Shown: positions 4,513 through 38,662 of the stretch, piece after piece | How the letters are laid out: each line of letters starts with the position of its first letter | Numbering within the stretch: the stretch's first letter is position 1 | Position numbers and translations under genes: made by a program | The notes under the pieces: generated by a model | Databases searched by the model: none | Told to the model about the DNA's origin: nothing | Seen by the model: only the letters and a program-made list of their open reading frames with translations | Assembly (NCBI GenBank): GCA_032251435.1 | Contig: JAVVEH010000036.1 | Coordinates: 1-44,343 of the forward strand | Length of the DNA: 44,343 bases | Source of the DNA: Lentisphaeria bacterium | Lineage (GTDB): Bacteria; Verrucomicrobiota; Lentisphaeria; Oligosphaerales; MVZH01 | Reading direction: 5' to 3'

Positions 4513-6912
4513 ATGAAAACATCGCTTAAATGGCTCAGCAACTACATTGATCTGCCCTGGGATGACCGGGGATTGGCGGACAATTTAACCCTCGCCGGTT
4601 TAGAGGTCGAGGGCATTGAAACTGTCGGAGGTGTCCCGGAGGGCGTGGTCGCAGGGAAAATTCTTTCCCGTGATCCCCATCCAAACGCGGATAAACTCAG
4701 TGTTTGCGGCGTGACTGTGGGCGGAGGCGACTCCCTCCAGATTGTCTGCGGTGCGCCCAACTGCGACGCGGGAAAGATTGTTCCTGTCGCCACGATCGGG
4801 ACCGAATTTGAAGGCGGGTTCACAATCAAGAAAACCAACCTGCGGGGTGTGGCCTCCAATGGCATGATGTGCAGCGCCCGGGAACTGGGTCTTGGCGAAG
4901 GGCATGAAGGGCTGTTGGAACTGCCCGCCGACACGCCGGTCGGCAAGTCCGTGGCAACCCTGTTCGAGCCGGATGCGGTCATTGACTGGGAAATCACTCC
5001 TAATCGTCCTGACTGGGCCTCTCATTATGGCATCGCCCGGGAAATCGCCGCCGTCGCGGATTCCGCGGCGGACTTGCGCTTACCCCCCGTTTCACTGTCA
5101 GTTGTCGGTGACGAGGATGTGTCTGATCTGGCGGCCGTGGAGGTTCTCGACCCCGATTTATGCCCGCGTTACACCGCCCGGATCGTGCGCGACGTGATCA
5201 TTGGGCCGAGCCCGGAATGGCTGGCGGAGGCCCTGCGGTCGGTCGGTTTACGCCCGATCAACACGATTGTGGATATCACAAATTATGTGATGCTGGAATG
5301 CGGCCAGCCGCTTCACGCCTTTGATTACGACGCGTTGGGCGGCCACAAAATCATTGTCCGGCGGGCGGAAAAAGATGAGACATTAACCACGCTGGACGGC
5401 AGCGTCTGCGAGCTGACGGAGGACAACCTGGTAATCGCCGACGCTGACCGGGCTGTGGCGCTGGCCGGTGTCATGGGAGGCGCGAACAGTGAAATTTCCA
5501 CGGCAACCACAACCGTTTTACTGGAAGCTGCGGTCTTCAACGCCTCAAATGTGCGGCAAACCGCCCGGACGCATGGTTTCCACACCGATTCCTCCTACCG
5601 GTTTGAGCGGGGTGTCGACATTGACATGACCGACTGGGCGAGCCGCCGCGCCTGCGCGTTGATGTGCGAACACGCGGGAGGGAAAATGGTGAAGGGCGTG
5701 ATTGATGTTTACCCGGCTCCCCGCCGGTCTCCGCGCGTGACCTGCCGCGTCAGCCGCGTCAACCAACTGCTTGGCACCGCGCTGACCGCCGACGTGATCG
5801 CCGGTTTTTTCCGTCGCCTGGGCCTGGAAGTCGTGGAAAACAGCGGCGAGACCGTGACCGTCGCGGTGCCCGCGTTCCGGTTGGATTTGACCCGGGAAGT
5901 GGACTTGATTGAGGAAGTCGCCCGGTTACATGGGTTGAATAACCTGCCCGCGGTTCCCGTGCGGGCTGTGGCGGGTGGATCCCGGGCGCTTGACACCTAT
6001 GACCCGGTAAAAGAAGCCCGGGCTCAATTACTGGCTCTGGGATTATCTGAGGCGATGAATTACAGCCTGACCAGTGTCGAGGACGCGACCCTGCGCACAG
6101 GCGTCCATGAAAACGAGCTAATCAAGCTCAGCAATCCGATCAGCGCTGAAACCGGCGTGATGCGCCCCTCCCTGCTGTCGGGGTTGTTGCGGAATGTGGC
6201 GCATAACATCGCCCATCAGGTCACTGACGTGGCGTTTTTTGAAATTGGCCGAGTGATCATGACCCGTCCCGGGGTTCCCGAAGAGCGGTCACAGGTGGGC
6301 ATCGCCATGACCGGGCGCCGCCATCCTGAACGCTTCGGAACAGAACGGGAAACTCTTTTGGATTTTTATGATTTAAAAGGGATTTTGGAAAGCTGGATTT
6401 CCGCCCGCGGGCTGACCCCTGTCACCGCGGCGGCTGATCATCCGGCCTTCCGGACCGGTGCCTGCGCGGCATTGACTGTGGACGGGGCGGACATCGCGGT
6501 TTACGGGGAAGCCGCCCCTGAATTAACCGTCGGCACACGCCTCACCACCCCGCTGTATATCGCCTTGGTGGAGCTGGACGCGCTATTAGCGGCGGCCGCG
6601 CCGCGCCCGGTGTTCACGCCGTTGCCCCAGTTCCCCGGAACGACCCGGGACATTTCTCTGGTGGCCCCCGCGGCGGTAAGTGGCGGGGACATTATCGACG
6701 CGATCCGCTCGGTGAAAAACCCGCTGCTTGAGGATGTCCGTCTTTTTGATGTGTACGAAGACGCGGCTGTCCTGGGCGAAGGTCGGCGCGGTCTGTCTTA
6801 TTCATTGACCTATCGGGATCCGGCGAAAACGGTGACCGATAAAAAGGTGAATAAGGCGCATGAGTATTTAAAGAAAGCGCTGGCGGAAAAGTTGCCTGTC
6901 GAGTATCGCTAG
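4513..6912 (+). CDS. pheT: phenylalanine--tRNA ligase beta subunit
   Basis: 799 aa. N-terminal tRNA-binding domain (MKTSLKWLSNYIDL...), B3/4, B5 and FDX-ACB-like C-terminus. Conserved pheS-pheT order. Confidence 0.95.
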   Translation: MKTSLKWLSNYIDLPWDDRGLADNLTLAGLEVEGIETVGGVPEGVVAGKILSRDPHPNADKLSVCGVTVGGGDSLQIVCGAPNCDAGKIVPVATIGTEFEGGFTIKKTNLRGVASNGMMCSARELGLGEGHEGLLELPADTPVGKSVATLFEPDAVIDWEITPNRPDWASHYGIAREIAAVADSAADLRLPPVSLSVVGDEDVSDLAAVEVLDPDLCPRYTARIVRDVIIGPSPEWLAEALRSVGLRPINTIVDITNYVMLECGQPLHAFDYDALGGHKIIVRRAEKDETLTTLDGSVCELTEDNLVIADADRAVALAGVMGGANSEISTATTTVLLEAAVFNASNVRQTARTHGFHTDSSYRFERGVDIDMTDWASRRACALMCEHAGGKMVKGVIDVYPAPRRSPRVTCRVSRVNQLLGTALTADVIAGFFRRLGLEVVENSGETVTVAVPAFRLDLTREVDLIEEVARLHGLNNLPAVPVRAVAGGSRALDTYDPVKEARAQLLALGLSEAMNYSLTSVEDATLRTGVHENELIKLSNPISAETGVMRPSLLSGLLRNVAHNIAHQVTDVAFFEIGRVIMTRPGVPEERSQVGIAMTGRRHPERFGTERETLLDFYDLKGILESWISARGLTPVTAAADHPAFRTGACAALTVDGADIAVYGEAAPELTVGTRLTTPLYIALVELDALLAAAAPRPVFTPLPQFPGTTRDISLVAPAAVSGGDIIDAIRSVKNPLLEDVRLFDVYEDAAVLGEGRRGLSYSLTYRDPAKTVTDKKVNKAHEYLKKALAEKLPVEYR

Positions 6913-7134: not shown

Positions 7135-8865
7135 ATGCCAACGCGAGAAAAAGTTGTTGAACCGGTGGCACCCGGAGATAATGTGGCGTATTTAGCCGGT
7201 CCCCGGCGTCTGATCAGCATGCTCGCCGCCGCCTTGGGAAGCGGGCTGCTGCTAACGGTCGCCTACGCTCCTTTGGAGCTGGATGTGGCCGCTTGGTTCG
7301 CCTTGTGCCCCATCCTTCTGGCCCCGGTCAGCCGCCGCTGGCGGATCCGTATCCTTATCGGCTTGCTGTTCGGCTTCACGCATACTGTGACAAACCTTTT
7401 CTGGCTGAATGAAGTGGGATTTGGCGCCGGCGTGTTACTGGCTGTTTACTGCGCGGTTTTCCCGGCGGCCTGGTACCTGTTCAGCGCGCTTATCACCAAT
7501 CCCCCCTGGGCATTACGACCTCCCCACCACGCGGCTGACACCCTGCGGCCGGCTCAGGCGATTTCCCGCCTGGAGGCGTCTCCTCTGCGCTTAATGATCC
7601 TGACGTTGGAGCTGGCGGCTTTATGGGTCGCCCTGGAGTGGGTCCAAAGCTGGCTGTTTACCGGGTTTCCCTGGAACCAGTTGGCGATCACCCAATGGCG
7701 GCACACACAGTTATTGACGCTGACGCGGTTTACCGGTGTGTACGGGTTGTCGTTTGTCATTGTGGCGGCCAACATCGGTTTAGCGCGGGTGATCGGTGAC
7801 CGGTCCGGGCGCTGGATCAGAGGAGAAAAAACCGGGATTTCCTGGCCAGCCGTGACAGCCGCCGCTGTCATGTGCGTGGCCCTCGGAATCACTTGGCTGG
7901 CGGAATCCCCGCCGGTGCCGGACACCCATTTGAAGATCATCGGCGTTCAGGGACATATTCCCCAGTGCCGGGATTTCACTGAGGAGCAACTGGACGACGC
8001 CCTGACTGTCTACCGCGATCTGACCCTGGCGGCGGCGGGAACCCCTGGTCTGGACTTGGTGGTCTGGCCGGAAAGCGCGGTTCCCGCGGCCCTGCTGTGG
8101 GACTCAAAGGCGGGCGGCGTGTTAAGTGAGGTGCTTTCAGCCTTGGACTGCCCGTTACTGGCGGGAAGTGTGCAGTACGCCCCCGCCACAAACCCGGACG
8201 ATGAGAATGATTTTATCATGTTCAACAGTGCTTTACTCTTTTCCGCTGACGATAAACTCGTGCAGGTTTATCACAAAATTCGCCGTGTTCCCTTTGGTGA
8301 ATACGTTCCCTTTGGCGACTATCTTCCCTGGTTGGTGACAGCGATCGGCATGGGGCGGGACCTGACTCCCGGAAAGGAATTCACGGTGTTCGACCTGGGC
8401 CGGGGAGTCCATGCCGGTGTCAACATCTGCTTTGAGGACGCTTTTCCGGACATCAGCCGTGAATTCACCAAACGGGGGGCGAATTTACTGATCACCGTCA
8501 CCAACGACGCCTGGTACGCGGAGAGCGCGGGCAGCCGCCAGCACATGCTGCACGCGGTTTTCCGCGCGGTTGAGAACGCCCGACCGCTTTTTCGGGCCGG
8601 CAACAACAGTGACACATGCCTGATCACCCCCGACGGGAAAATACATGGCGCGCTGGTGGATCCAGTGACCGGGAATCGCTTTGTGCGCGGATTTCAGTCG
8701 TACAAGGTTCCCGTGGCCACTGAAGCGCCTCTCACCTTTTACACCCGCTATGGCGATGTCTTCGCTAAACTCTGCGCGGCGGCGGCCGCCGTGTCCTTGC
8801 TCCGGCTTCTCGTCCGTTGGCTTACCCGCAAACGGCAGCTTGCCAATCTATTTGCGGCGGACTAG
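7135..8865 (+). CDS. lnt: apolipoprotein N-acyltransferase
   Basis: 576 aa. Multi-TM N-terminal half, then C-terminal CN-hydrolase domain (VWPESAVP, NICFEDAFPD, catalytic-Cys region). Start could be a few codons downstream. Confidence 0.85.
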   Translation: MPTREKVVEPVAPGDNVAYLAGPRRLISMLAAALGSGLLLTVAYAPLELDVAAWFALCPILLAPVSRRWRIRILIGLLFGFTHTVTNLFWLNEVGFGAGVLLAVYCAVFPAAWYLFSALITNPPWALRPPHHAADTLRPAQAISRLEASPLRLMILTLELAALWVALEWVQSWLFTGFPWNQLAITQWRHTQLLTLTRFTGVYGLSFVIVAANIGLARVIGDRSGRWIRGEKTGISWPAVTAAAVMCVALGITWLAESPPVPDTHLKIIGVQGHIPQCRDFTEEQLDDALTVYRDLTLAAAGTPGLDLVVWPESAVPAALLWDSKAGGVLSEVLSALDCPLLAGSVQYAPATNPDDENDFIMFNSALLFSADDKLVQVYHKIRRVPFGEYVPFGDYLPWLVTAIGMGRDLTPGKEFTVFDLGRGVHAGVNICFEDAFPDISREFTKRGANLLITVTNDAWYAESAGSRQHMLHAVFRAVENARPLFRAGNNSDTCLITPDGKIHGALVDPVTGNRFVRGFQSYKVPVATEAPLTFYTRYGDVFAKLCAAAAAVSLLRLLVRWLTRKRQLANLFAAD

Positions 8866-8953
8866 TGCCTTGGCCAAATCGGTATCGGTATCACAATCTG
8901 ACGATTTCTTCGTCTCCGCCGCAACCCCGTCAGGGTTGACAGGTCATTGGTTG

Positions 8954-9186
8954 CATGATCCCAGGGTTGAGGCAACCCCGGGCTACATGACATAACGCCC
9001 TTGGCGTAAAACTTGGACCGATTTCTGTCTGTCCGCCTTTATCCCGCCGCAGGCTGGGGAAGACATGACGCCCGGGTCGGGCGGCTCCAACGACCCCGCG
9101 ACGACTGATGCCTGCGGGGCGCGCAAGGCGCTTCAACGACTTCCACGACTTCAACGACTTCCAACGATTTCAACGACTTCAAACGC
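8954..9186. repeat. direct repeat copy A flanking the ATPase islet (hairpin head + conserved about 150 bp + 9-bp tandem array)
   Basis: CATGATCCCAGGGTTGAGGCAACCCCGGGCTACATGACATAACGCCCTTGGCGTAAAACTTGGACCGATTTCTGTCTGTCCGCCTTTATCCCGCCGCAGGC...GGCTCCAACGACCCCGC is nearly identical to 10846-11000. It ends in about 6 units of CTTCAACGA-type 9-mers (9131-9186). Confidence 0.75.
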
Positions 9187-9268
9187 TTTTTCAGATTGAT
9201 AAATTCTTAAAATACTGTATTTTAGGAATTAGACTGTCTTAAATATCAGTTTTTAACGAGGTCTCATC

Positions 9269-10423
9269 ATGTTTCAGCGATTGCTCGCCCTGGATACAGG
9301 CGCCAGTTCGTTTCTTTTCGGTCCCCGGGGCACCGGGAAATCATATTGGCTGCATCATATCCATGCCGACGCTCTGTGCATCGACCTGCTGGAGTCCGAC
9401 ACATACACCCAGTTGCTGGCGGATCCTTCCCGCCTCCGGAATCTCGTTCCTCCCCACGTGAACCTGGTTGTCATTGACGAAGTGCAGCGGGTGCCTGATC
9501 TTCTGCATGAGGTCCACCGGCTTATCGAGCGGCAGGGGACACGCTTCATCCTGACCGGTTCGAGCGCCCGTAAGCTCCGTCGGCCCTCATCCGATCTTCT
9601 GGCTGGACGGGCCTTGCTGAACACCATGCATCCATTGGTGCCGGAGGAGCTTGGCGAGGCCTTCGATATGGCAAAGGCCCTGCGGGTCGGTCTACTTCCG
9701 GCGCTTTACGACCCGAAGCGGGGGGGGCTTGTCGCCGAGCATTATCTGTCCTCTTATGTTCAGGCGTATCTGCGGGAAGAAGTACTACAAGAAGGACTGA
9801 CCCGTAATCTGGCGGCCTTTTCGCGTTTTCTAGAGGCGGCGAGTTTTTCCCAGGGTAACGTCCTTAATATGGCTGAAGTCGCCCGTGAATGCGCGGTGGG
9901 AAGCAAAGTCGTCGCCAGCTATTTTGACATTCTTGAAGATTTGCTCATCGGTGTCCGCCTGCCCGCGTTCACCCGCCGGGCTCGGCGGCGGGTCGTGCAG
10001 CATCCAAAATTCTATTTTTTCGATTGCGGGGTCTACAGAACCATCCGCCCGAGAGGGCCGTTGGACACCCCCGAGGAAACAGACGGGGCGGCCCTCGAAA
10101 CCCTGGTTTTTCAAGTAATCCGGGCGACCGTGGATGCCCTGCGGCTACCCTTTTCACTTTACTTCTGGCGGACGGTGTCCGGCGCGGAAGTTGATTTTGT
10201 CCTTTACGGAGAAGGAGGGCTGATTGCTATTGAGGTCAAACGGAAACGGACGCTGGGGGGCAACGACTTGGCCGGGCTGAAATCATTCAAGGATGAATAC
10301 CCCATGGCCCGCTGCGTCGTTTTGGCAAATACAGCCCGACGGGAAGCCATTGGCCCGATCGAGGTCATCCCGATCGGAGACGCTCTGGCACATCTCCGCG
10401 AAATTCTCGTGCCAGTTCAATAG
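9269..10423 (+). CDS. AAA+ superfamily ATPase, COG1373-like (AAA_14 + DUF4143-type C-terminal domain)
   Basis: 384 aa. P-loop FGPRGTGKSYWL near the N-terminus, Walker B LVVIDEVQR, C-terminal region typical of DUF4143 ATPases. AT-rich 80-bp upstream leader contrasts with the surrounding GC-rich DNA. Confidence 0.85.
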   Translation: MFQRLLALDTGASSFLFGPRGTGKSYWLHHIHADALCIDLLESDTYTQLLADPSRLRNLVPPHVNLVVIDEVQRVPDLLHEVHRLIERQGTRFILTGSSARKLRRPSSDLLAGRALLNTMHPLVPEELGEAFDMAKALRVGLLPALYDPKRGGLVAEHYLSSYVQAYLREEVLQEGLTRNLAAFSRFLEAASFSQGNVLNMAEVARECAVGSKVVASYFDILEDLLIGVRLPAFTRRARRRVVQHPKFYFFDCGVYRTIRPRGPLDTPEETDGAALETLVFQVIRATVDALRLPFSLYFWRTVSGAEVDFVLYGEGGLIAIEVKRKRTLGGNDLAGLKSFKDEYPMARCVVLANTARREAIGPIEVIPIGDALAHLREILVPVQ

Positions 10424-10442
10424 GGGGCTTCAGCCCTGAAAT

Positions 10443-10500
10443 CCCCCCACATTTCGAACATTACCCATTTTTCGGCAATGTCCGAAAAGTGGGGGGGGGG
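10443..10500. terminator. long imperfect hairpin ending in G10 homopolymer, just 3' of the ATPase gene
   Basis: CCCCCCACATTTCGAACATTACCCA / TTCGGCAATGTCCGAAAAGTGGGGGGGGGG form a roughly 25-bp imperfect stem with a tiny loop. G10 run at 10491-10500, C6 run at 10443-10448. Confidence 0.4.
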
Positions 10501-10545
10501 ATGAGAAATGTGTGTCTTTTTAACCCCAAGGGGGTGGAATGAAAT

Positions 10546-10777
10546 AGGGGGCTGTCCCAGAATATACGAAAACGTGTTTTCCATAGCCCTGGAAGGGCGG
10601 CATCATCGTAGCCCCGAGCTCCGTGCCCGGGCTGAAAGATCAATGACTAATGTGTCCCTCCAGGACACATAAATCATTTTTCCGAGTCCCCAGGCTTCAC
10701 CTGGGGCTACGTTGAATTTGCCCCTCCGGGGCGCAAAGCTGTCTCCGCATCCATTTCTGGGACAGCCCCCTATATCC
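10546..10777. repeat. TIR-bounded small element (MITE-like), copy 1
   Basis: Perfect 18-bp inverted termini TAGGGGGCTGTCCCAGAA (10546-10563) and TTCTGGGACAGCCCCCTA (10757-10774). The interior is full of short GC hairpins (TGTGTCCCTCCAGGACACA, CCCCAGGCTTCACCTGGGG, GCCCCTCCGGGGC). The terminal core GGCTGTCCCRGAA is shared with 16472-16617. Confidence 0.55.
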
Positions 10778-10845
10778 CGTCGCCCCGGTGGGGCTAAAAA
10801 TGCGCATGACCCAGGCCGACAGGAAAAGGCCAAGTTAAAAACTGT

Positions 10846-11140
10846 CATGATCCAGGGTTGAGGCAACCCCGGGCTACATGACATAACGCCCTTGGCGTAA
10901 AACTTGGACCGATTTCTGTCTGTCCGCCTTTATCCCGCCGCAGGCAGGGGAGACATGACGCCCGGGTCGGGCGGCTCCAACGACCCCGCAGACAGCAGTC
11001 GTCGCGGAGCGCGCAAGGCGCTTCAACGATTTCAACGATTTCAACGATTTCAACGATTTCAACGATTTCAACGACTTCAACGATTTCAACGATTTCAACG
11101 ATTTCAACGTCTTTAACGTCTTTAACGTCTTTAACGCCTT
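10846..11140. repeat. direct repeat copy B flanking the ATPase islet (same unit as 8954-9186) with expanded 9-bp tandem array
   Basis: About 150 bp nearly identical to copy A (single-base indels only), followed by about 13 units of CTTCAACGA/TTTCAACGA/TCTTTAACG 9-mers (11021-11140). The array abuts the stop codon of the downstream aldo/keto reductase gene. Confidence 0.75.
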
Positions 11141-12259
11141 TTACGCCTTCAATGCTTCATGGGCTTCCCGGAGGCGTTCCCGAACGGGAAAATTCTGGGG
11201 GCATTTTGTCTCACAAGCGCCGCAATCCACACAGGCATCCGCCTGTTTTGCAGGACTATTCGGATTTTTTCCAATCCGCTGATAGGCATTCTTACTGGAT
11301 TCCCACAGTCCGTAAATCCGGGCTTTGTTATACAAATCGAAAATCCGGGCGATGGGGATATTCTGGGGACATGGCATACAATACTGACAGCCCGTGCAAT
11401 ACAAGTCCGCCATTTTTTTGAGTTTTTCCAAATGCGCCTCAATCGCCTCCTGGTCCGCGTCGGAGAGCGGCTCGGGGTCCGCGCATGTGCGGAGATTGTC
11501 AATCACCTGTTCCATGGTGCTCATGCCGGACAACGCGACATCGACATTTGGGTTCGCCAAGACGAAACGCATAGCCAGTTCCGGCACCGGGGTCCGGTGT
11601 GACAACGCGTCTTGCAACGCCTCGCTGGGCTCGCCTAACCGTCCGCCGCCGACGGGTCCCATGACCACCACGCCCATCCCCTTGGCTTTCGCATGGGCGA
11701 TTCCCTCTTCCATTTGGCGGTCGAGCATATTGTACTGCACCGTCACAGATTCATAAAATCCCGTGTCCACCAACTTGATCAACGCGTCATTGTTGTCATG
11801 AAACGAGGTGCAGATATGACGAATCATTCCCTGCTCTTTCGCCTTCATCAGCCATTTTGACACATGCGGCTCAACCCGCTCGCAATAGTTTTTCCAATTC
11901 ACGCCGTGGGTGTTGTAGATATCGATATAATCCGTTCCCAACCGTTCCAGACTATTCTCCAGATGGGTCCACCATTGTTTCTCGTCATCATAGCAGTGGT
12001 TTTTTGTGGAGACGACAATTTTATCCCGCCAGCCCTTCAAGGCCTCCCCCACCACACGTTGACTGTCTTGATGGCAATATCCCACCGCGGTGTCGATATA
12101 GGTCATCCCATTTTCAAACGCCTTATGGATCATGGGAATCGCCAAGTCGCGGTTAATGTGTTTTTCCCCGTCATCTCCATCCACCATAGGCAGGCGCATA
12201 GCGCCGAAACCCAACCGTGAAACCCTTAATCCTGTCCGCCCGAGTATACTGTAGCGCAT
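11141..12259 (-). CDS. aldo/keto reductase with C-terminal 4Fe-4S ferredoxin domain
   Basis: 372 aa. N-terminus MRYSILGRTGLRVSRLGFGAMRL is typical of AKR family members. C-terminal Cys motifs CTGCQYCMPCPQ and CVDCGACETKCPQ indicate an Fe-S cluster domain. Confidence 0.85.
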   Translation of the reverse strand: MRYSILGRTGLRVSRLGFGAMRLPMVDGDDGEKHINRDLAIPMIHKAFENGMTYIDTAVGYCHQDSQRVVGEALKGWRDKIVVSTKNHCYDDEKQWWTHLENSLERLGTDYIDIYNTHGVNWKNYCERVEPHVSKWLMKAKEQGMIRHICTSFHDNNDALIKLVDTGFYESVTVQYNMLDRQMEEGIAHAKAKGMGVVVMGPVGGGRLGEPSEALQDALSHRTPVPELAMRFVLANPNVDVALSGMSTMEQVIDNLRTCADPEPLSDADQEAIEAHLEKLKKMADLYCTGCQYCMPCPQNIPIARIFDLYNKARIYGLWESSKNAYQRIGKNPNSPAKQADACVDCGACETKCPQNFPVRERLREAHEALKA

Positions 12260-14914: not shown

Positions 14915-16180
14915 TCAAACAGCGGTGATGTCAAGATCGAATCCAAACCGGCCCAGGTCTTTCCCCCATCCGCGGATATCGCGGCTCAAAGATCCGCGCC
15001 AGACACCGGGACGGATCTCCGCCAATTGAATCTGCCCGCCCGTCACCCCTCGTTCCCGGGCCGCCACCCCTTCCGGCAACAGGGACACCGCCCCGTCAAA
15101 CTGAAATAAAACCAGGGTTTCAGGGCTGAATTGAGTGATCAAGTCGCCATAACTCCGACCAGTCTTTTCGATGACGCTGGCCGCTTGCTTCATCTCCGGA
15201 TCCAGGCTGCCGACGAATTGGGAACCCGCCCGGATCAAATCCACAACGGGTTCCAAAAGAGCCTGATCGGGTTGCAGGCTGAAACTCAATGTCAGAGGAA
15301 TCACTCGCCGGTCCATGGTTTTAGCCGAAGCGATCCGGAACAATTCGCACGTATCCCAATGCACGGTGTCGGGCAACGATTTAACCGGCAGCGCCACGCC
15401 ATTCCGGTGACGGCCGCTGGCGGCGCTAAAGACCCATCGCGTTATCCTCTTTTTCATCCGCAACCAGTCCTGAACCGTGTATGCCTGTCGTTGATACCCC
15501 TTTCCGGTCACCCGCCCGCGCCGGATGGAAATCTTTTTTTCCGTCCATTCAAACCAAGGCTTGTTTATCCTCACCCCCACCATGCTATGGGTGTCTCTCA
15601 CGCCAAAATCTTCCACCGTCAAGACCACCCGGGCCAGCGGTTGATCGGCCGCGCCGCCCAAGGTGAGCTCTATCGTCGCCGCATGATCGAAGGGGGCTTC
15701 AACCACGGTAAATCCAACAGCTTCGTCATCATCATCCGCGCATTTCGCCAGGACGGCTAAAAACGCTCCGACCGCCCGGGAACCATATTCAGCCGGATCC
15801 ACACCCGCCGTACCGAGCACTTTCGCCGCGGCATCCGCGAACTGACTCCCCTTAAGCATCGCGTCACGCGCTTTTTTATCCGACTCCACCACCCGTATGG
15901 CGACGGGCAACGGGCCGGGACAGGGGCCGAGGAAAGCGATCTGATCGGCGCCGGAAACATCCACGCTCCCGGTGCCGGAGTAAGGAAACAAACTGGATTG
16001 TCCGGCGATGGACAGACTGATGAATCCTTCCCGTCTCCCGGTTAAATCCTTTGATCTGAACTGGCGGGTGTCCACCCGCATGGATGTCACCGACACCGCC
16101 ACCAGGTGTTTGCGGCTGATCGCGCCCCCGGAACTTCGGACAATCGCTTGGATTTGGCCTGCCAAAGAGAGTCGTTTCAT
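14915..16180 (-). CDS. conserved hypothetical protein (421 aa), upstream of cstA
   Basis: Long ORF with non-repetitive, soluble-looking composition. No motif I can assign. Same strand as cstA, 94 bp gap. Confidence 0.55.
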   Translation of the reverse strand: MKRLSLAGQIQAIVRSSGGAISRKHLVAVSVTSMRVDTRQFRSKDLTGRREGFISLSIAGQSSLFPYSGTGSVDVSGADQIAFLGPCPGPLPVAIRVVESDKKARDAMLKGSQFADAAAKVLGTAGVDPAEYGSRAVGAFLAVLAKCADDDDEAVGFTVVEAPFDHAATIELTLGGAADQPLARVVLTVEDFGVRDTHSMVGVRINKPWFEWTEKKISIRRGRVTGKGYQRQAYTVQDWLRMKKRITRWVFSAASGRHRNGVALPVKSLPDTVHWDTCELFRIASAKTMDRRVIPLTLSFSLQPDQALLEPVVDLIRAGSQFVGSLDPEMKQAASVIEKTGRSYGDLITQFSPETLVLFQFDGAVSLLPEGVAARERGVTGGQIQLAEIRPGVWRGSLSRDIRGWGKDLGRFGFDLDITAV

Positions 16181-29714: not shown

Positions 29715-30398
29715 ATGGAATTTCTTCATACGATATTTTCCGGCCCGATGCTGGTCTACAGCGTCTCGCTCTGCTTGATGTTGCTTTACTGGCTGATCAT
29801 TCTGATTGGCTTGATCGATATCGAGTCACTGGATGCTGTTTTCGGTTTTGGTGACGCTTTGGAGGGCGCGGGAGAAGTGGCGGGAGAAGCGGCCGCGGAA
29901 TCCGCGGGGGACGCGTTGGCTGGCGCGGCGGCGCCTGGCCCTCTGGAAGCGGTGCTCGGATTCATCGGCATCGGGACCGTTCCGGTAACCATTGTCGGCA
30001 GCATTCTGATTATCACCATGTGGTTTCTGGCTTTCTGCCTGTATTATTTTGTGTCGCCGGTCGTGACGCACCTGGCCCCCCCCCTGATAATCACCCTGTG
30101 CTTTTTTCTGCTCTCGGCCTTTGGCAGTTACTTCACCACGGGGTTGCTGACGCGCCCGCTGCGGAAAGTTTTCACGGTTGTCAGCACCCATGCCGGTTAT
30201 CACCTGGTGGGACGGACCTGCAAAATTCGCAGCAGCGAAGTGACCGAAATGTTTGGTGAGGCTGAATTGATGGTGAAGGATTCATTCATCATCATTTCGG
30301 TCCGTTGCGATGAGGAGAATAATCTGAAAAAAGGCGAAGAGGCTGTGATTATTGACTATCAAAAAGAAACCCACCTATACGACGTGCGAAAACTTTAA
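29715..30398 (+). CDS. YqiJ/NfeD-like inner-membrane protein (DUF1449-type) with C-terminal OB-fold
   Basis: 227 aa. Two hydrophobic helices, a Gly/Ala/Glu-rich linker, and a C-terminal beta-rich segment (LVGRTCKIRSSEVTEMFGEAELMVKDSFIIISV) resembling the NfeD/YqiJ beta-barrel. Located directly upstream of a flotillin gene, as in E. coli yqiJ-yqiK. Confidence 0.6.
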   Translation: MEFLHTIFSGPMLVYSVSLCLMLLYWLIILIGLIDIESLDAVFGFGDALEGAGEVAGEAAAESAGDALAGAAAPGPLEAVLGFIGIGTVPVTIVGSILIITMWFLAFCLYYFVSPVVTHLAPPLIITLCFFLLSAFGSYFTTGLLTRPLRKVFTVVSTHAGYHLVGRTCKIRSSEVTEMFGEAELMVKDSFIIISVRCDEENNLKKGEEAVIIDYQKETHLYDVRKL

Positions 30399-30461: not shown

Positions 30462-32504
30462 TTGCGCATGATCACTCCATTCATTCCCTTGGGAGCCCTG
30501 TCCATTCCAGAACCCCTTCTGGCCGTACTGATTGTCATCGGGTCACTCATCGTCATCGTCTTTGGCTTGATGATCCTGGCCGTCCAATTTTACCGCAAGG
30601 TGGAACAGGGGCAAGCCTTGATCCTGAATAAATTGCGTGACAAAGTTCAAGTCAGTTTCACGGGTGGCATTGTCCTGCCGATCATCCACAAAGCGGAAGT
30701 GATGGACATCTCCGTCCGGGCCATGGAAGTGGAGCGTTCCGGTAAAAACGGCTTGATTTGCGAAGACAACATGCGGGCGGACATCCGGGTGACTTTCTAC
30801 GTCCGGGTGAACAAAACCCAGGAAGATGTGCTCAAGGTCGCCCAGTCCGTCGGTTGCAAACGCGCGTCGACCAAGGAAACGCTGGAAGAACTCTTCCAGG
30901 CCAAATTCTCCGAAGCTCTGAAAACGGTGGGTAAGCAGATGGAGTTTACCACGCTGTTCACCGAACGGGAGAGATTTAAAGAACAGATCATTAAAGTCAT
31001 TGGTGAGGATTTGAACGGCTATCGCCTGGAAGACGCGGCCATTGACTATTTGGAACAGACCCCGTTGTCCTCTCTCGATGACTCCAATATCCTCGATGCC
31101 CAGGGGATTCGTAAAATTGTTGACTTGACCGCCCGCGAGGCCGTTCAGACCAATGATTTCCGCCGCAACCGCGAGAAAATCATCAAGGCCCAGGATGTGG
31201 AGGCCCGCGAAAAGATTCTGGAGCTGGAGCGCCAGCAGGCCGACGCCGAAGCCAGGCAGGCCCGCGAAATCGCCACCGTGCAAGCCCGCGAACAGGCCGA
31301 AGCGGAAAAAGTGGAAGCTGAAGAACGCCTGAAATCTGAAAGCGCCCGCATCGCCACCGACGAGGAACTGGCGGTCGCTGAGGAAAATAAACTCCGCCAG
31401 ATTGAAATTGCCGCCAAAGCCAAGGAGCGGACGATCGCGGTCGAAACCGAACGCGTCGAACGCGACCGGCAATTGGAAGCGGTCGAACGCGAACGGGCCG
31501 TGGCCATCAAGGACATGGAAAAGGCGAAACAGGTCGAAACAGAAAAGAAAGAAGTCGAAGATATCATCCGTGAACGCGTGATGGTCCAACGCACCGTGGC
31601 CGAAGAAGAAGAGAAGATCAAAGACACCCGCGAAATCATGACCGCCGAGCGGGAACGCAAGCGGCAGGTGATCGAAGCCGAACGGGAAGCCGAACAGGAA
31701 CGCGTCAAAGAAGTCGTGGCCGCCAAGGCTAAAGAAGAGGCCGCTGAAAGCCTGTTCGCCGAAATGGTCAAAATGGCCGAAGCCGAACGGGTTAAATCCG
31801 AAAACATCAGCGAAGCCAAAAAAGTGTTGGCTGAAGGGGTCATCGCCGAGGAATCCGCTTTGGGCTTAGCTCAAGTCAAGGTTAAAGAGGGCGAGGCGCG
31901 TGCCATTGAACTGACCGGGAAAGCGGAAGCTCTGGCTCAGACGGAAAAACACAAAGCCACCGCGTTCGGTCTGGAAGCCGAAGGCGAATCTGAAGCTAAA
32001 GCCATGGCCGCCAAGTTCCATGCGGAAGCCGAAGGCATCAACGAAAAAGCCGCCGCCATGAAGGAATTTGACGGGGTCGGCCGCGAACATGAAGAGTTCA
32101 AACTGGAACTCAATAAGGCCAAAGAAATTGAGCTGGCCGCCATCGATGTCCAGCGCAAGGTCGCCGAATACCAGGCTGATGTCCTCGCCGAAGCCATGAA
32201 ACAGGCGGACATCGACATCGTCGGCGGCGACGGAAAATTCCTGGAAACCTTTTTCCGCTCCATCAGCCTAGCCAAGAGTGTTGATGGATTTGTTGACAAG
32301 AGCAAAGAAGCCACCAAACTGGTGGCAGGCGACAGCGCTAACATCATGACCAAGCTGTCCAACGTTCTGGCCGATAGCGGGATCAGCAGCGAAGATGTGA
32401 AAAATCTGAGCATGTCTCAGATGTTAAACAAACTCAGCAAAACTGAAAATCCTGACACCGCCAAACGGCTCGAAGAGATCATCGGCTGGCTGGCGGAACA
32501 ATAA
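30462..32504 (+). CDS. flotillin (SPFH/Band-7) family protein, YqiK/FloA-like
   Basis: 680 aa. N-terminal membrane anchor, SPFH domain (QALILNKLRDKVQVSFTGGIVLPIIHKAEVMDISVRAMEV), then a very long E/A/R/K-rich coiled-coil typical of bacterial flotillins. Confidence 0.9.
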   Translation: MRMITPFIPLGALSIPEPLLAVLIVIGSLIVIVFGLMILAVQFYRKVEQGQALILNKLRDKVQVSFTGGIVLPIIHKAEVMDISVRAMEVERSGKNGLICEDNMRADIRVTFYVRVNKTQEDVLKVAQSVGCKRASTKETLEELFQAKFSEALKTVGKQMEFTTLFTERERFKEQIIKVIGEDLNGYRLEDAAIDYLEQTPLSSLDDSNILDAQGIRKIVDLTAREAVQTNDFRRNREKIIKAQDVEAREKILELERQQADAEARQAREIATVQAREQAEAEKVEAEERLKSESARIATDEELAVAEENKLRQIEIAAKAKERTIAVETERVERDRQLEAVERERAVAIKDMEKAKQVETEKKEVEDIIRERVMVQRTVAEEEEKIKDTREIMTAERERKRQVIEAEREAEQERVKEVVAAKAKEEAAESLFAEMVKMAEAERVKSENISEAKKVLAEGVIAEESALGLAQVKVKEGEARAIELTGKAEALAQTEKHKATAFGLEAEGESEAKAMAAKFHAEAEGINEKAAAMKEFDGVGREHEEFKLELNKAKEIELAAIDVQRKVAEYQADVLAEAMKQADIDIVGGDGKFLETFFRSISLAKSVDGFVDKSKEATKLVAGDSANIMTKLSNVLADSGISSEDVKNLSMSQMLNKLSKTENPDTAKRLEEIIGWLAEQ

Positions 32505-32633: not shown

Positions 32634-35600
32634 ATGCCCGACGAAAAAAACACAACTCACCCGGACGAACTGACGAACACCGCGGGAACCGCGGTGGAGG
32701 AGAAACTGGAGGGGGGGGCTTACGAGGTGCTGCGCAAGCGTATTGAAGCGCTTGACGGCAAACTCTGCGCGGCGCTGGCAAGCCTGAACGGGCGCCGTAA
32801 AGATATCTTCGGCAGTCACGAGAGCAAGCTGATTGGCACCCAGCGGGTCACCACCGACAACAACTGCGTTCCCCGTGACATTGTCGCTGTCGATGGACAC
32901 ATGCTGTTCGGCTATAATGTGTTCATCGGGCTGAAAACCGAGACAGTGGTCGAGGACGTGCTTTGTCTGATGAAATTCGACGGGGAGCAATTCGGGGCTT
33001 CGGAGCTTCCGCTTCTCGACACTCCCGCCTTTCGCCGGGACTTCCAGGAACTTTACAAATACTATCGCGACGCCCGGTTTCTCCAGTTCGTGAAAACGGA
33101 ATCACGCCTGTTGGTCATCTTCCAGATTGGCCGGTCGGTCACCGATGTGAAAATTTTCCGCTGGCAGGTCGAGAAAGGTGGAGGATTTAAATACATTGAT
33201 GACCGCGGGGATATGGAGTACAAGCTGCCGCCCCAGCATGATTTTGAATGGACAGCCGCCACCCGCGACAATCAGGTGCAAGGCGCCCACCCCCATTTTT
33301 CCATTCTCGACCAGCTGTTTGTGGAATGCATCGGCGGGACACTGACCATTAAAATAGAAAACAACACCAAAACCGGAGAGGGGATTTTCAATGAACCCGT
33401 CGACAACCCCGATCAGACCCTGGACGACGCCGAAATCTATTACGCCGAAGTCGGCCCGTTAATTCTGCTCAAAGTTAAACCTTACCGGGAAGAAAAATAC
33501 CGCTACATCGTCTACAACAGCCGTTTGCAGACGGCCATCCGCATCGACGCCATTGACCAAGCCTGTATTGAACTGCCGGAAGATCACGGCATCATCTTCC
33601 CCCGTGGCTATTATCTCATCGATGGACGTTCCCGGGTCTTTGACGAAAAAGTGGACAACATGCGCTATCTCCAGTGCAAAAAAAGTCCCAACGGTGAGGA
33701 CTTTCTCTACGTGTTCTATCATGAGGAACAGGGCCTGCACATCCTGCTTCAGTACAACATGATTTCCAAGGAACTGTCCACGCCGATCACCTGCCATGGG
33801 TGTTCTCTGTTCAAAGACGGTCGCATGATCGTCTTCAACGCCCCCGATAACGAACCGCGGCGGAACCACCCCATGCAGCTGTGGAAGACACCCTTTTACA
33901 GCGATGATTACGAAGCTCCTGTCACCAGTGATTCCCCCTTGGCCCGAATCGGCAACCGGGATTTAGTCCGCGGCATTTCCGAAGGATATGGAATTTCCCG
34001 GCTGATCAACAGTGACATCATCACTCTGGATGTTTACGCGGACTTGCTGAAATCCACCACCAATCTGCTGGACGGCTACCACTGGATCAATGAACCTGAG
34101 TGCGGAGATCTTAAGACCATTGTCCAAGAGATTAATCAGACGGCGGTGGCCGCCATCGACGAATTCGAAAAAGTCGTGCGGATGAAAGAAAACACCGCCA
34201 AGCGGATCGAAGAGAGTCGGCAGGCCGTGCATCGGGCCATGTTGGATCTACGTCCGGATCAGATGCACGACATCAATGACTTTGTCAACGCGATCAGCGA
34301 ATACCGCGCACGCCGCGGGATTGTCATCGGCCTGCGTGACTTGCGTTACGCGGACATGGCCCTGATTGACGAAATGGATACTCAGCTGGCCCGAGGAACC
34401 CAGGACATTTCTGAGGCGTGTGTCGAATTCCTGCTCAAGCCGGATTCCCTCAAACCATACAGTGAAAAAAATGCCGACTTAGATAAAAAAATCGCGGCCG
34501 TCAACAAAGTCGCCGATCTTGAAAAACTCGCTGGGGAACTGGAAAAATTAGCCGTCCAACTGGACCTGCTGACCGATGTCGTCGGCAATCTGAACATTGA
34601 CGACGCCACCAAAACCACCCGCATTGTCGAAGCCATCACCGATGTCTACGCGGGGGTCAACCGCACCCGTTCCATGACCCGCAACCGCCGACTGGATATT
34701 GGCCGGGAGGAAGCGGAAGCTGAATTCGCCGCGCAATTCAAACTCCTCTCCCAAAGCATCACCAACTACATTGGCATGTGCGATAGCGCCGCCAAATGTG
34801 ATGAGCTCCTGACCAAGATCATGGTCAGCATCGAGGAACTGGAAGGGCGATTCGCTGATTATGAGGAATTCACTCTGCAAATCGGGGAAAAACGCGAAGA
34901 GGCTTACAACGCCTTCGCCGACCGCAAACAGGTCCTGGAGGACAGCCAGAAAAAACGGGTCACCTCTCTAGCCAGTTCCGCGGAGCGGATCCTCAAGGGC
35001 GTTGTCGCCCGGTCGGGAACCTTCAAGGATGTTGACTCCATTAACGCCTACTTCGCCAGCGACTTGATGGTCTCGAAACTGCGTGATGTCACCCGGCAGC
35101 TCTACGACATGGGTGAGTCAGTCAAAGCCGATGAACTCAATGGCAAACTGAAAACCGCGAAAGAAACCGCCGTCCGCGGACTCCGCGACAAGCTGGAACT
35201 GTTCACCGACGGCATGGACATTATCACATTCGGGGACTACTCGTTCTCCGTCAACACGCAACCTCTTGAGTTGACCACTCTCCACCGGGATGGCGACATG
35301 TTTTTCCATCTTACCGGAACCAGCTTCTACGAAAAAATCACGGACCCGGAGTTTCTCGCCACCCGCGCCATCTGGCGGCAGGAACTGATCAGCGAAAACC
35401 GGAATGTCTACCGGGCGGAATATCTCGCGTATCAGGCCTTGGAAGCCGCCTTGAACCATACCGGCGACTTTTCCATGGATGACCTCCGGAAAGCCGCGGG
35501 ACACGTTAAAGATCTAGGCACACTGGTTCGGGATTTTGCCGCTCCCCGTTATAACGAAGGCTACGACAAAGGCATTCATGACCATGACGCCACTCTCATC

Positions 35601-37826
35601 CTCAACGAACTGATCCGCTTCTACGACTCCACCGAACTGCTGCGTTATGACTCCACCAGCCGGGCTCACGCCATTATTTTCTGGCGCTACTACGGCAATC
35701 AAGCGCATCGCCACATTCTCCGCAACCGTATGCGCAGTTTCGGCTCTTTGCCCCGCGTCTTCGGCTGTTCCGCCATCCGCCGGGATTACATCGACGAAAT
35801 CCGCGCCGCCATGTGTGTCTTCTTCGAGGCGTTTGGACGGGTTATCGACCCGGCAGTTCTCAGCCAGGCCGCCGAATTTCTCTATTATGAACTCCAGGAT
35901 GCCGACGAGCTCGAATTCACCATCAACGCCCTTGCCTATGACCTGCACAAGCAATTCATGAGCTACCTGAAAACAAAAAAAGCTGAAAAGGCTTTCCTGC
36001 AGGACATTGACGAACTGTGCTCCGACTACATCAGTCGGATCAATTTGATCCACGACTGGGTCTCGGCTTTCGTGAAACAAAGCGGGAACGACCCTTCAGA
36101 ACACTTCATCTGGGAAGTCGTGGCCTTGATCTCCTCCGGCGAAGTCATCAACCACGATGTCACCTCGGTCGGCACGTACGTTGAGATAAAGGGCCTGTTA
36201 GGGCAGCATCACTTGGTGCGGGACAACCGGCTGGATCTCCACTTCGATCTGTTCCTGCTGAAGATGAAAGAGTTCGTTTCCGTTCAGGTCCCCAAATTCG
36301 AAGCCTTCACGCGTCTGCGCAAACAGCTGATCGACCGCCGCCGCGAGGAAATCCGCCTGGCCGAATTCCTGCCCCGGGTCATGGGCGGCTTTGTCCGAAA
36401 CAAACTGATCAGCGAGGTGTATCTGAATCTTGTCGGCGCGAACTTCGCGAAACAACTTGGTGTCATCGGCGACGCCCGTCGGACCGACCAGATGGGCCTG
36501 CTTCTACTTATTTCCCCGCCGGGATATGGCAAAACCACGCTCATGGAATATGTCGCCAACCGCCTGGGCCTCGCCTTTATGAAAATCAACGGGCCGGCTA
36601 TCGGCCATTCCGTCACCAGCCTGGATCCGGTCGAAGCCCCGAACGCCACCGCCCGTGAGGAACTCCAAAAGCTCAACCTGTCCCTGGAAATGGGCAATAA
36701 TGTGATGATCTATCTGGATGATATTCAGCACTGCCATTCCGAATTCCTCCAGAAATTTATCTCGCTCTGCGACGCCCAGCGGAAAATTGAAGGGGTCTAT
36801 CGCGGGAAAACCCGAACCTACGACCTGCGCGGGCGCAAAGTCGCTGTCGTCATGGCCGGCAACCCCTACACCGAATCCGGAGAGAAATTCCGCATCCCCG
36901 ACATGCTCGCCAACCGCGCCGACACCTACAACCTCGGCGACATCAGCTCCTCATCCAGAGACGCCTTTGAGCTGTCCTTTATCGAAAACAGCATGACCAG
37001 CAATCCCGTTCTCTCCAAAGTGGCCACCCGTGGGCATGCCGACATCTATAAATTCGCCGAGGCCGTCCGGCGGAATTCCACCGAAGGCATTGAATTTGAA
37101 CACAATTATTCCGCCGAAGAGGTAAACGAAACCCTTAATGTCCTCCGCAAACTTTTCATGGTGCGCGACACCGTCCTGAAAATGAACCGCCAGTACATCG
37201 ACTCCGCCGCCCAGCAGGATGAATACCGCGCCGAACCCCCGTTTAAACTCCAGGGTTCCTATCGCAACATGAACCGGATGGCCGAGAAAGTCTATCCTAT
37301 CATGACCGATGAGGAAGTCAACCAACTGATCATCGATCACTACACCAACGAAGCGCAAACCCTGACCACAGGAGCGGAGGCCAACCTGCTCAAATTCAGT
37401 GAAATTCTCGGGATACTCACGCCCGAACAGACTGACCGCTGGCAGCGAATCCGCGATGAATTCCAACGGCGGCAGACATTGGGCGGGGTCGACAATGACG
37501 ACCAACTGGCCCAGCTCATGGCCCAGCTCTCCACCTTGGGTGTCGGTGTCAAGAACATCACAGCCGCGATCGCCGCCCGCCCGGACATTGACCTGTCCCC
37601 ACTGGTCAAAGCCCTCCAGGCCGCAGGTAAAAAGCCATCACCCATCCAGGTCAACGCCCAGTTCCCGCCGGAATATGCCGAAGCCTGGGCGCGTCAGAGC
37701 CAGTCACACGATCAGCTGGCCGAAATCCTTAACGGCATGCGCCAGCGTAGCGACGACTTTGTCAAGCTCGGGGATCTTCTGGATGATATCATCCATGGAA
37801 AAGTGACCTTGCAGATCACAAAATAA
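32634..37826 (+). CDS. giant (1730 aa) protein with single MoxR/AAA_5-like AAA+ ATPase module near the C-terminus; N-terminal about 1200 aa of unknown function
   Basis: Uninterrupted 5.2-kb ORF. Walker A LLLISPPGYGKTTL, Walker B MIYLDDIQH, and the MoxR-like sensor/arginine-finger region VMAGNPYTESGEKFRIPDMLANRADTYNL. Nothing recognisable before about residue 1200. No TM segments obvious. Confidence 0.85.
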   Translation: MPDEKNTTHPDELTNTAGTAVEEKLEGGAYEVLRKRIEALDGKLCAALASLNGRRKDIFGSHESKLIGTQRVTTDNNCVPRDIVAVDGHMLFGYNVFIGLKTETVVEDVLCLMKFDGEQFGASELPLLDTPAFRRDFQELYKYYRDARFLQFVKTESRLLVIFQIGRSVTDVKIFRWQVEKGGGFKYIDDRGDMEYKLPPQHDFEWTAATRDNQVQGAHPHFSILDQLFVECIGGTLTIKIENNTKTGEGIFNEPVDNPDQTLDDAEIYYAEVGPLILLKVKPYREEKYRYIVYNSRLQTAIRIDAIDQACIELPEDHGIIFPRGYYLIDGRSRVFDEKVDNMRYLQCKKSPNGEDFLYVFYHEEQGLHILLQYNMISKELSTPITCHGCSLFKDGRMIVFNAPDNEPRRNHPMQLWKTPFYSDDYEAPVTSDSPLARIGNRDLVRGISEGYGISRLINSDIITLDVYADLLKSTTNLLDGYHWINEPECGDLKTIVQEINQTAVAAIDEFEKVVRMKENTAKRIEESRQAVHRAMLDLRPDQMHDINDFVNAISEYRARRGIVIGLRDLRYADMALIDEMDTQLARGTQDISEACVEFLLKPDSLKPYSEKNADLDKKIAAVNKVADLEKLAGELEKLAVQLDLLTDVVGNLNIDDATKTTRIVEAITDVYAGVNRTRSMTRNRRLDIGREEAEAEFAAQFKLLSQSITNYIGMCDSAAKCDELLTKIMVSIEELEGRFADYEEFTLQIGEKREEAYNAFADRKQVLEDSQKKRVTSLASSAERILKGVVARSGTFKDVDSINAYFASDLMVSKLRDVTRQLYDMGESVKADELNGKLKTAKETAVRGLRDKLELFTDGMDIITFGDYSFSVNTQPLELTTLHRDGDMFFHLTGTSFYEKITDPEFLATRAIWRQELISENRNVYRAEYLAYQALEAALNHTGDFSMDDLRKAAGHVKDLGTLVRDFAAPRYNEGYDKGIHDHDATLILNELIRFYDSTELLRYDSTSRAHAIIFWRYYGNQAHRHILRNRMRSFGSLPRVFGCSAIRRDYIDEIRAAMCVFFEAFGRVIDPAVLSQAAEFLYYELQDADELEFTINALAYDLHKQFMSYLKTKKAEKAFLQDIDELCSDYISRINLIHDWVSAFVKQSGNDPSEHFIWEVVALISSGEVINHDVTSVGTYVEIKGLLGQHHLVRDNRLDLHFDLFLLKMKEFVSVQVPKFEAFTRLRKQLIDRRREEIRLAEFLPRVMGGFVRNKLISEVYLNLVGANFAKQLGVIGDARRTDQMGLLLLISPPGYGKTTLMEYVANRLGLAFMKINGPAIGHSVTSLDPVEAPNATAREELQKLNLSLEMGNNVMIYLDDIQHCHSEFLQKFISLCDAQRKIEGVYRGKTRTYDLRGRKVAVVMAGNPYTESGEKFRIPDMLANRADTYNLGDISSSSRDAFELSFIENSMTSNPVLSKVATRGHADIYKFAEAVRRNSTEGIEFEHNYSAEEVNETLNVLRKLFMVRDTVLKMNRQYIDSAAQQDEYRAEPPFKLQGSYRNMNRMAEKVYPIMTDEEVNQLIIDHYTNEAQTLTTGAEANLLKFSEILGILTPEQTDRWQRIRDEFQRRQTLGGVDNDDQLAQLMAQLSTLGVGVKNITAAIAARPDIDLSPLVKALQAAGKKPSPIQVNAQFPPEYAEAWARQSQSHDQLAEILNGMRQRSDDFVKLGDLLDDIIHGKVTLQITK

Positions 37827-38647: not shown

Positions 38648-38662
38648 GTGGCCTGAACGTCG

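Follow-up and report, generated by a model that had tools for sequence, protein, structure and literature searches.

Does a lone, accessory-looking gene that stands between two long direct repeats mark the place where foreign DNA entered a chromosome? This question is raised by a 44,343-nucleotide stretch of DNA (here called the window), which is the whole of contig JAVVEH010000036.1 in a metagenome-assembled genome (MAG) of a Lentisphaeria bacterium (assembly GCA_032251435.1). Between the gene for apolipoprotein N-acyltransferase (lnt) and a gene for an aldo/keto reductase (AKR), the window carries the gene for an ATPase of the PDC-S01 type, a putative defense candidate, bracketed by two copies of a hairpin-rich block that ends in a 9-bp minisatellite. 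A first-pass annotation of this DNA had described the arrangement and proposed that cargo of atypical composition was acquired there by a mobilization mechanism that would be novel or act in trans. Our analysis bears out the anatomy but not the acquisition. The direct repeats look like two copies of local noncoding DNA rather than attachment sites or insertion scars, and on this reading nothing here is self-mobile. The locus is probably a hypervariable noncoding tract around a long-resident PDC-S01-type gene, within which an intralocus duplication has taken place. The arrangement is a new instance; the gene family is known, and the repeats stem from ordinary, known mutational processes.

Self-BLAST of the window finds one long repeat in 44 kb, the direct pair 8954-9182 and 10846-11071 (92.2% identity over 230 nt; E value of 6e-88). 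Base-by-base comparison shows that the first ~145 nt of the two copies are ~99% identical, with 99 of 100 positions matching in one gap-free stretch (8961-9060 versus 10852-10951) and 38 of 38 in the next (9062-9099 versus 10952-10989); this part differs only by a C indel where it begins, a T/A substitution, and an A indel. Each block consists of a 177-bp hairpin-rich unit followed by the 9-bp minisatellite, and the length of the array sets that of the block, which is ~235 bp for copy 1, on the lnt side, and ~300 bp for copy 2, on the AKR side. The unit bodies of copy 1 (8954-9130) and of copy 2 (10846-11021, delimited by self-BLAST and base comparison) open with the hairpin CCAGGGTTG-AGG-CAACCCCGG, located at 8961-8982 and 10852-10873, a pattern matched by 0 of 100 shuffles even with 3 mismatches allowed. 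Both also contain the 16-mer CTGTCTGTCCGCCTTT (9025-9040 and 10916-10931). In copy 1, a loop hairpin (9094-9119) and a GC hairpin just before the array complete the unit. Between the copies lies a block of 1,656 bp (9190-10845) that holds one ATPase gene, a palindromic element, and a G10 tract. Thus far the first-pass annotation had seen the locus correctly: near-identical direct repeats around an insert of ~1.66 kb, a hairpin at the start and a 9-bp array at the end of each copy (located in both by Tandem Repeats Finder [TRF] and base comparison), a single COG1373/DUF4143 ATPase gene, an element with terminal inverted repeats (TIRs), the G10 tract, and a TTGATA-16-TATTTT promoter are all recovered at the positions given here and below.

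A closer look at the loop hairpin shows a difference between the copies that was absent from the first-pass annotation. The 14-nt loop of copy 1 (9100-9113), flanked by CCCCGC/GCGGGG, runs in the opposite orientation to 10990-11003 of copy 2; when the hairpins at 9094-9119 and 10984-11009 are compared, the loops agree at 12 of 14 positions as reverse complements and at 2 of 14 directly. Intrastrand template switching makes small flips of this type. We also considered the unit as a structured RNA and rejected it as such, as its folding z-scores against shuffles range only from -1 to -3.8 across tests (for copy 1, -1.1 on the + strand and -2.0 on the - strand).

The arrays tie the repeats to their surroundings. 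TR1 (9131-9189), with ~6 units of the TTCAACGAC type (5.7 copies at 9131-9185 by TRF), abuts the ATPase promoter and is also found at the start of a contig from a conspecific strain, described below. TR2 (11022-11149) has ~14 units, made up of 9.8 copies of TTCAACGAT and 4.9 of AACGTCTTT by TRF, and grades into the 3' end of the AKR gene. Reading toward that gene, TTCAACGAT (nine times) is followed by TTCAACGTC, TTTAACGTC (three times), TTTAACGCC, TTTTACGCC, and TTCAATGCT, unbroken into the AKR stop and last codons. The AKR terminus, comprising the last codons plus the stop, itself consists of two quasi-repeats, GCGTTGAAA GCGTAAAAG. The encoded C terminus, LKEAHEAL, is conserved in homologs down to 63% identity, all of which lack such an array. 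The array on the AKR side is polymorphic in length, with ~14 units in the window, ~4 in the conspecific strain, and 2 seed units in a sister species.

This gradient, the conserved AKR C terminus in array-free homologs, and the two seeds in the sister species together indicate that the array grew head to tail from the AKR 3' end by slippage. If the array derives from the AKR gene, then TR1, which lies 1.9 kb away across the ATPase gene, must be a copy of TR2; and as the unit adjoins the array in both copies, the lnt-side block is most simply the secondary one. It also follows from this origin of the array that the repeat is local chromosomal DNA and not element DNA. Copy 2 abuts the AKR stop, but the AKR open reading frame (ORF) is not itself duplicated; the duplication extends only to array units that resemble its final codons.

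Two further observations concern such arrays. On the - strand, six-frame translation shows that the AKR frame stays open past its TAA stop for 89 more codons (KALKTLKTLKTLKSLKSLKS..., with LKT/LKS repeats; window 10874-11143), most simply a by-product of the 9-bp array plus ~45 ordinary codons. A different 9-bp repeat (GACAGGTCC, three times) occurs downstream of another ATPase ortholog of 79% amino acid identity (locus L094, ~1420-1455) and is unrelated to the array of the window.

To establish what the locus looks like in related genomes, we turned to Logan assemblies, in which closer relatives were found by protein homology search. Exact-protein look-ups of the window Lnt, AKR, and ATPase gave no match on record, and the top Lnt match among GTDB representative genomes reaches 54% identity and lacks lnt-AKR synteny, which makes it unusable for an empty-site test. 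The sister species, from sample SRR22808019, has an average core nucleotide identity of 81% with the window; beyond it, the next Lnt relative (60%) and the next AKR relative (76%) are not syntenic. Its contig L089 carries pheS-pheT-lnt, with Lnt at 83% amino acid identity, and ends 234 nt past lnt. Contig L085 carries a hypothetical gene, CstA, a second hypothetical gene, and AKR, the last at 91% amino acid identity, and ends 127 nt past AKR. The free ends of the two contigs overlap by 24 exact nt, and both are collinear with consecutive segments of the window, so that they can plausibly be joined.

The joined lnt-AKR interval measures 337 nt, compared with 2,275 nt in the window. In order, it contains the lnt stop, 76 nt, the last 38 codons of the ATPase gene, 34 nt, a 58-nt match to the spacer that follows the ATPase gene in the window, 45 nt, the 16-mer CTGTCTGTCCGCCTTT, and the AKR stop, against which the 16-mer sits directly. 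The ATPase remnant spans 105 nt at 91.4% identity (L089 9936-10040 versus window 10304-10408), with 34 of 38 amino acids identical, and the 58 nt match window 10416-10473 at 86%. No long repeat, palindromic element, or array is present in the joined interval, which has only the two seed units GCGTTGAAA GCGTAAAAG. As an ATPase remnant lies between lnt and AKR in the sister species, the gene was at this site before the species split, and the sister species has since lost most of it. A further detail is the junction CCGCCTTT|TACGC, which is the expected product of a deletion between the CGCCTTT 7-mers found at 10925-10931 and 11135-11141 in the window, and this suggests that the unit-plus-array next to AKR is also old.

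The conspecific strain is represented by Logan contig L091 (SRR29699997; 1,405 nt), reached through a second member of the ATPase 90% cluster. It matches window 9159-10452 at 98.6%, covering the end of TR1, the promoter, the ATPase gene, and 29 nt past its stop, and then resumes at 11106-11215, a stretch that holds four 9-bp units, which have diverged, and the 3' end of AKR. What it lacks is 10453-11105, a 653-bp indel. Absent with this segment are the palindrome, copy 2, the greater part of TR2, and the right arm of a hairpin together with its G10 tract, so that the convergent ATPase and AKR genes are only 65 nt apart in this strain. Because 10453-10473 and the 16-mer are common to the window and the sister species, the strain carries a deletion derivative.

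The gene at the center of the locus (9269-10423, + strand) encodes a protein of 384 amino acids with AAA_14 (PF13173; E value of 5e-19) and DUF4143 (PF13635; E value of 1e-31) domains. Walker A (GPRGTGKS, residues 18 to 25), Walker B (VVIDE, 66 to 71), and a C-terminal D...EVK motif are visible. In PADLOC, the PDC-S01 hidden Markov model (HMM) PDLC04790 matches the ATPase with an E value of 6.8e-56, as do six further PDC-S01 models; a PDB sequence search with the ATPase gave no match, and NCBIfam has no model for it. DUF4143/COG1373 is catalogued within the PD-(D/E)xK superfamily (PMC3424549), and PDC-S01 is a widespread single-gene putative defense candidate, an ATPase fused to a PD-(D/E)xK domain, that awaits experimental validation (PMC12988326). 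Judged by these domains and profiles, the window ATPase is of a known candidate-defense kind, with a putative role in defense. Homologs at 55 to 60% identity are spread over many phyla, and close orthologs sit in different, unrelated neighborhoods. In one Victivallales MAG, locus L082 has two DUF4143 ATPase paralogs less than 5 kb apart on opposite strands (5548-6819 and 10001-11158), which illustrates the multicopy habit of the family. The ATPase is thus an accessory, horizontally exchanged kind of gene, and a known kind.

Being of an accessory kind is not the same as being foreign in composition. The first-pass annotation had combined the two, and while the former holds, given the PDC-S01 match, the unrelated contexts, and the loss of most of the gene in the sister species, the latter does not. 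We ran the GC and codon-usage comparison and find that the composition of the ATPase gene is native: its GC content (0.581), its GC content at third codon positions (GC3; 0.639), and its codon-usage distance (0.075) all lie within the limits set by the 26 other long ORFs in the window (0.525 to 0.605, 0.596 to 0.705, and 0.051 to 0.135, respectively). Low GC is confined to 200-nt windows around the leader, at 0.43 to 0.46 (9100-9299 = 0.43), and only the leader is AT rich.

This leader (~80 nt; 9190-9268, + strand) contains a sigma-70-like promoter, recovered by promoter scan, with TTGATA at 9196-9201, a 16-nt spacer, and TATTTT at 9218-9223. When four orthologous loci of unrelated genomic context (L081, L082/L083, and L084; 76 to 86% amino acid identity) are aligned, a TTGnnn -35 element, AAAA, and an invariant CTGTATTTTAsGAA are common to all. 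The motif lies at 9196-9232 in the window, 9925-9975 in L081, ~9930-9975 in L082, and 110-150 in L084; it is better conserved than the coding sequence, and the conserved stretch may also include an operator. Homology among the orthologs stops just upstream of the -35 hexamer, at window ~9190, which is the exact end of repeat copy 1, with 6 nt between the end of TR1 and the hexamer. No flanking direct repeats are found around the orthologous ATPase loci, and flanking repeats as a family-wide signature were rejected on this basis.

Taken together, these comparisons are consistent with a stepwise history in which the minisatellite would have grown by replication slippage from the two AKR-terminal quasi-repeats, and a single block duplication, probably with the AKR-side block as source, would have put the lnt-side block just upstream of the ATPase promoter. 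It may also be that both copies are old and that gene conversion has held them ~99% alike; ~99% identity between copies against ~81% between species fits either a recent duplication or old copies with conversion. On the reading of a resident gene in a changing tract, whichever of these applies, microhomology deletions would have shaped the alleles of the sister species and the conspecific strain, and fold-back or template-switch events would account for the flipped loop, the inverted duplication at 10441-10500 (see below), and perhaps the palindrome itself. Slippage would go on altering array length, and fold-back template switching would flip or duplicate hairpins. RecA-type recombination between the repeats would delete or convert the ATPase segment, the repeats being passive substrates. 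The direction of the duplication and its mechanism are read from sequence comparison and are put forward as the most plausible course.

Several points weigh against this reading or soften it. Only two relatives are informative, and neither shows the state of copy 1, as L091 starts inside TR1 and the region is deleted in the sister species, where, moreover, the interval rests on the 24-nt overlap of two contig ends rather than on one continuous contig. The window is itself a MAG contig whose repeat junctions are taken from assembly rather than from reads, and any one-step mechanism for the placement of copy 1 is hypothetical. The ATPase remnant, at 91.4%, is more similar than 96.5% of core 105-nt windows, with only 3.5% as similar; this could hint at a more recent exchange of the ATPase between the lineages, and a recent deletion or local constraint could account for it as well. 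Finally, the first hairpin of the unit weakly matches the lnt-proximal spacer of the sister species (p of ~0.02 to 0.09), a match too weak to use, which could mean that both copies are ancient and would favor gene conversion over recent duplication.

The geometry of the locus most readily evokes a mobile islet, in which a circular ATPase cassette with one unit and its array integrated by homologous or site-specific recombination and might excise again, with the enzyme supplied in trans. Repeat, cargo, and repeat are in the right order, with ~145 nt at ~99% identity; the gene family is patchy, multicopy, and found in unrelated contexts; the ATPase matches a defense-candidate family known to be horizontally transferred; the remnant in the sister species exceeds most of the core genome in similarity; and the locus is structurally polymorphic within the species. 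We nevertheless regard an islet as unlikely. The ATPase was at the site before the split from the species at ~81% identity, whereas the repeats, which the first-pass annotation had taken to mark its acquisition, are ~99% alike; the array within them is AKR derived, which makes them chromosomal DNA; and orthologs elsewhere are unflanked. The composition of the ATPase is native. The empty-site comparison proposed at the outset yields no empty site with a single repeat copy in either relative, as the sister species has a truncated ATPase without long repeats and L091 has the ATPase without copy 2, and neither allele is a product of inter-repeat recombination. No integrase, transposase, or recombinase is found among 26 of the 27 contig ORFs of at least 200 amino acids, which were scanned with Pfam, the one left out encoding 1,730 amino acids (32634-37826); nor is a tRNA or transfer-messenger RNA (tmRNA) found in the 44-kb contig. 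A variant that needs no integrase has RecA recombination between the ~145-nt copies pop promoter and ATPase out as a one-copy circle, which re-enters related chromosomes with a single AKR-side copy. If true, a defense gene could be gained and lost rapidly in a population without a dedicated recombinase, and both the above-core similarity of the remnant and the structural variation between strains would be what cassette traffic has left behind; we think this very unlikely.

Could the second copy be a product of assembly? A contig that merges coexisting strain variants might have one repeat copy and its neighbors misplaced or duplicated, and the setting invites the suspicion: the window is an entire metagenome-assembled contig, a conspecific variant without copy 2 exists, a 145-nt near-identical repeat approaches read or k-mer length, and the Logan contigs of relatives break exactly at these repeats. 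An artifact is doubtful all the same. Each copy is linked to its own flanks by several differences that lie close together: besides the inverted loop and arrays that differ, the copies are set apart by one substitution and two indels, one of which is 6 nt from the edge on the left. In L091 the junction of TR1, promoter, and ATPase gene recurs independently, as does the sequence as far as 10452, and the sister species provides independent confirmation of 10416-10473 and of the copy 2 16-mer next to AKR. A biological role for the block, in which hairpins and array would terminate transcription, act as an insulator, or, as a regulatory tract of variable length, tune ATPase expression in the style of a contingency locus, would be compatible with local duplication around a resident gene. 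Phase variation is common among defense-type genes, the ATPase is a defense candidate, TR1 ends 6 nt before the -35 hexamer, and the AKR-side array differs in length between strains. Such a role seems rather improbable, however, as no canonical terminator is detected in the unit, its folding is not significantly above that of shuffles, no Rfam family matches, the array lies outside both the -35/-10 spacer and the ORF, so that unit number would switch neither promoter nor frame, and the sister species and the orthologs do without the array.

Least probable of all is that the unit is a dispersed element, akin to repetitive extragenic palindromes (REPs) and bacterial interspersed mosaic elements (BIMEs) or to miniature inverted-repeat transposable elements (MITEs), that landed twice independently. 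The unit is hairpin rich, and a separate palindromic element adjoins copy 2. One metagenome scan at the Joint Genome Institute (JGI), for which the 22-nt hairpin was the query, found one contig, L090 (Ga0307411_10141967), which is unrelated. Its positions 1364-1388 are identical to the first hairpin over 25 nt and are followed by a similarly placed second small hairpin, AACGCC...GCGT, after which the similarity ends; the region is intergenic and full of similar hairpins. By our estimate a single 22-mer match is compatible with chance among many GC-rich hairpins, and the L090 match is probably chance or a generic hairpin module. In the window there are only two copies in 44 kb, 1.9 kb apart in the same orientation, each followed by the same locally derived 9-bp array, and neither terminal inverted repeats nor target duplications are seen at the ends of the unit. 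Unit, array, and palindrome are absent from ~1.1 Mb of Lentisphaerota loci; IMG/VR viral contigs gave no match to three unit/array patterns and one palindrome pattern, nor did BLAST against plasmid and phage collections.

Local rearrangement around a resident gene is visible downstream of the ATPase as well. The 3' spacer (10424-10500) overlaps the segment conserved in the sister species (10416-10473), contains the hairpin 10441-10500, and includes the point at which L091 breaks off (10452). The right arm of this hairpin ends in the G10 tract (10491-10500) and duplicates the left arm in inverted orientation. Since the sister species has the left arm only, the hairpin arose by inverted duplication in the lineage of the window. 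Next to it lies a 290-nt imperfect palindromic, MITE-like element in single copy (10517-10800), recognized by its TIR pair and nested inverted repeats. Its TIR arms (10517-10562 and 10755-10800) are 46 nt long and 80% complementary, and the 427-nt stretch that contains it (10424-10850) folds as one long hairpin (z-scores of -7.2 on the + strand and -10.5 on the - strand). No second copy of the palindrome is found in the window, in 94 loci (L085 and L091 included), or in viral contigs, plasmids, or phages, and no target-site duplication is recognized at its ends. Both a MITE-like element and a fold-back duplication are possible origins. Within the palindrome, a subthreshold Rfam match to Acido-Lenti-1 (10585-10630, - strand; 15 bits against the 37 needed; E value of 3.3) is probably due to chance. 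At the gathering threshold no Rfam family matches anywhere in the window, and at a permissive threshold only chance-level matches are found in 8800-11250.

The surroundings are those of a core genomic region. The contig has an overall GC content of 56.3% and carries housekeeping genes throughout, among them those for NuoF-like, PheS, PheT, Lnt, CstA, QueC, MurE, penicillin-binding (PBP), MraW, lipid A acyltransferase, and GDP-mannose dehydratase proteins. Of the 26 ORFs scanned with Pfam, 20 match housekeeping-type families or the ATPase and 6 have no match, including 14915-16180, 29715-30398, 30462-32504, and 37874-38527. On the left, lnt (7135-8865, + strand) is identified by LNT_N and CN_hydrolase domains and by pheS-pheT-lnt synteny with L089 of the sister species. 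The right flank (11141-12259, - strand) encodes, by Pfam, an AKR with a 4Fe-4S dicluster domain, has CstA-hypothetical gene-AKR synteny with L085, and is convergent with the ATPase gene. Two other short tandem arrays occur in the contig: GTGACTC, 6.4 times, in an intergenic gap (38606-38650), and 12-nt repeats of the GATAAAGGGACA type close to the end of the contig (44104-44216), where an exact duplicate of 32 nt also occurs.

In the three genomes compared, it is the gene that has long been in place and the noncoding DNA around it that changes, through the growth of a minisatellite from the last codons of a gene, the duplication of a block, flips of hairpins, and deletions at microhomologies. 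The locus carries a caution, as long direct repeats around a lone accessory-looking gene are easily misread as an insertion scar. It also adds one more PDC-S01-type candidate that is eroded or kept among close relatives, a possible natural contrast of presence and absence.

How does the locus compare with known systems? The ATPase resembles other PDC-S01 genes in its two-domain architecture, its strong HMM matches, its standing as a single gene with its own promoter, and its patchy, multicopy distribution. Nothing in the window protein sets it apart from them, and antiphage activity is putative for the family (PMC12988326) and for the window gene alike. As in islets flanked by attachment (att) sites, direct repeats bracket an accessory-type gene beside the 3' end of a conserved gene. 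Unlike such islets, the window has no detected integrase or tRNA, native composition, cargo that predates the species split, and no empty-site allele found, and its repeats are ~240 bp of local DNA that includes a minisatellite derived from a host gene. The array itself behaves like bacterial minisatellites or variable-number tandem repeats (VNTRs), with head-to-tail 9-bp units, degenerate edges, ~14 versus ~4 copies between strains, and a two-unit seed in the sister species; unlike the usual VNTR, it was duplicated to a second site, 1.9 kb away, along with the 177 bp of unique DNA that adjoin it. As for REP or BIME repeats, which occur in many copies per genome and often with a REP-associated tyrosine transposase (RAYT), the visible 44 kb of this genome contain two copies of the unit, both at one locus; the one 25-nt match lies in L090, and no RAYT-like gene is found in the window.

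The element at 10517-10800 is similar to palindromes of the enterobacterial repetitive intergenic consensus (ERIC), Correia, and MITE kinds in its 46-nt TIRs, in the long-hairpin fold of the 427 nt that contain it, and in its absence from two relatives. Unlike them, it is known in one copy and has no recognized target-site duplication, and a fold-back inverted duplication would explain it equally well. Small hairpin-associated inversions, made by loop flip-flop or intrastrand template switching, are known from plastid and bacterial genomes. The 14-nt loop between 6-bp inverted repeats, reverse-complemented between the copies, is of this type; whereas the known flips are seen between orthologs, the flip in the window is seen between paralogous copies.

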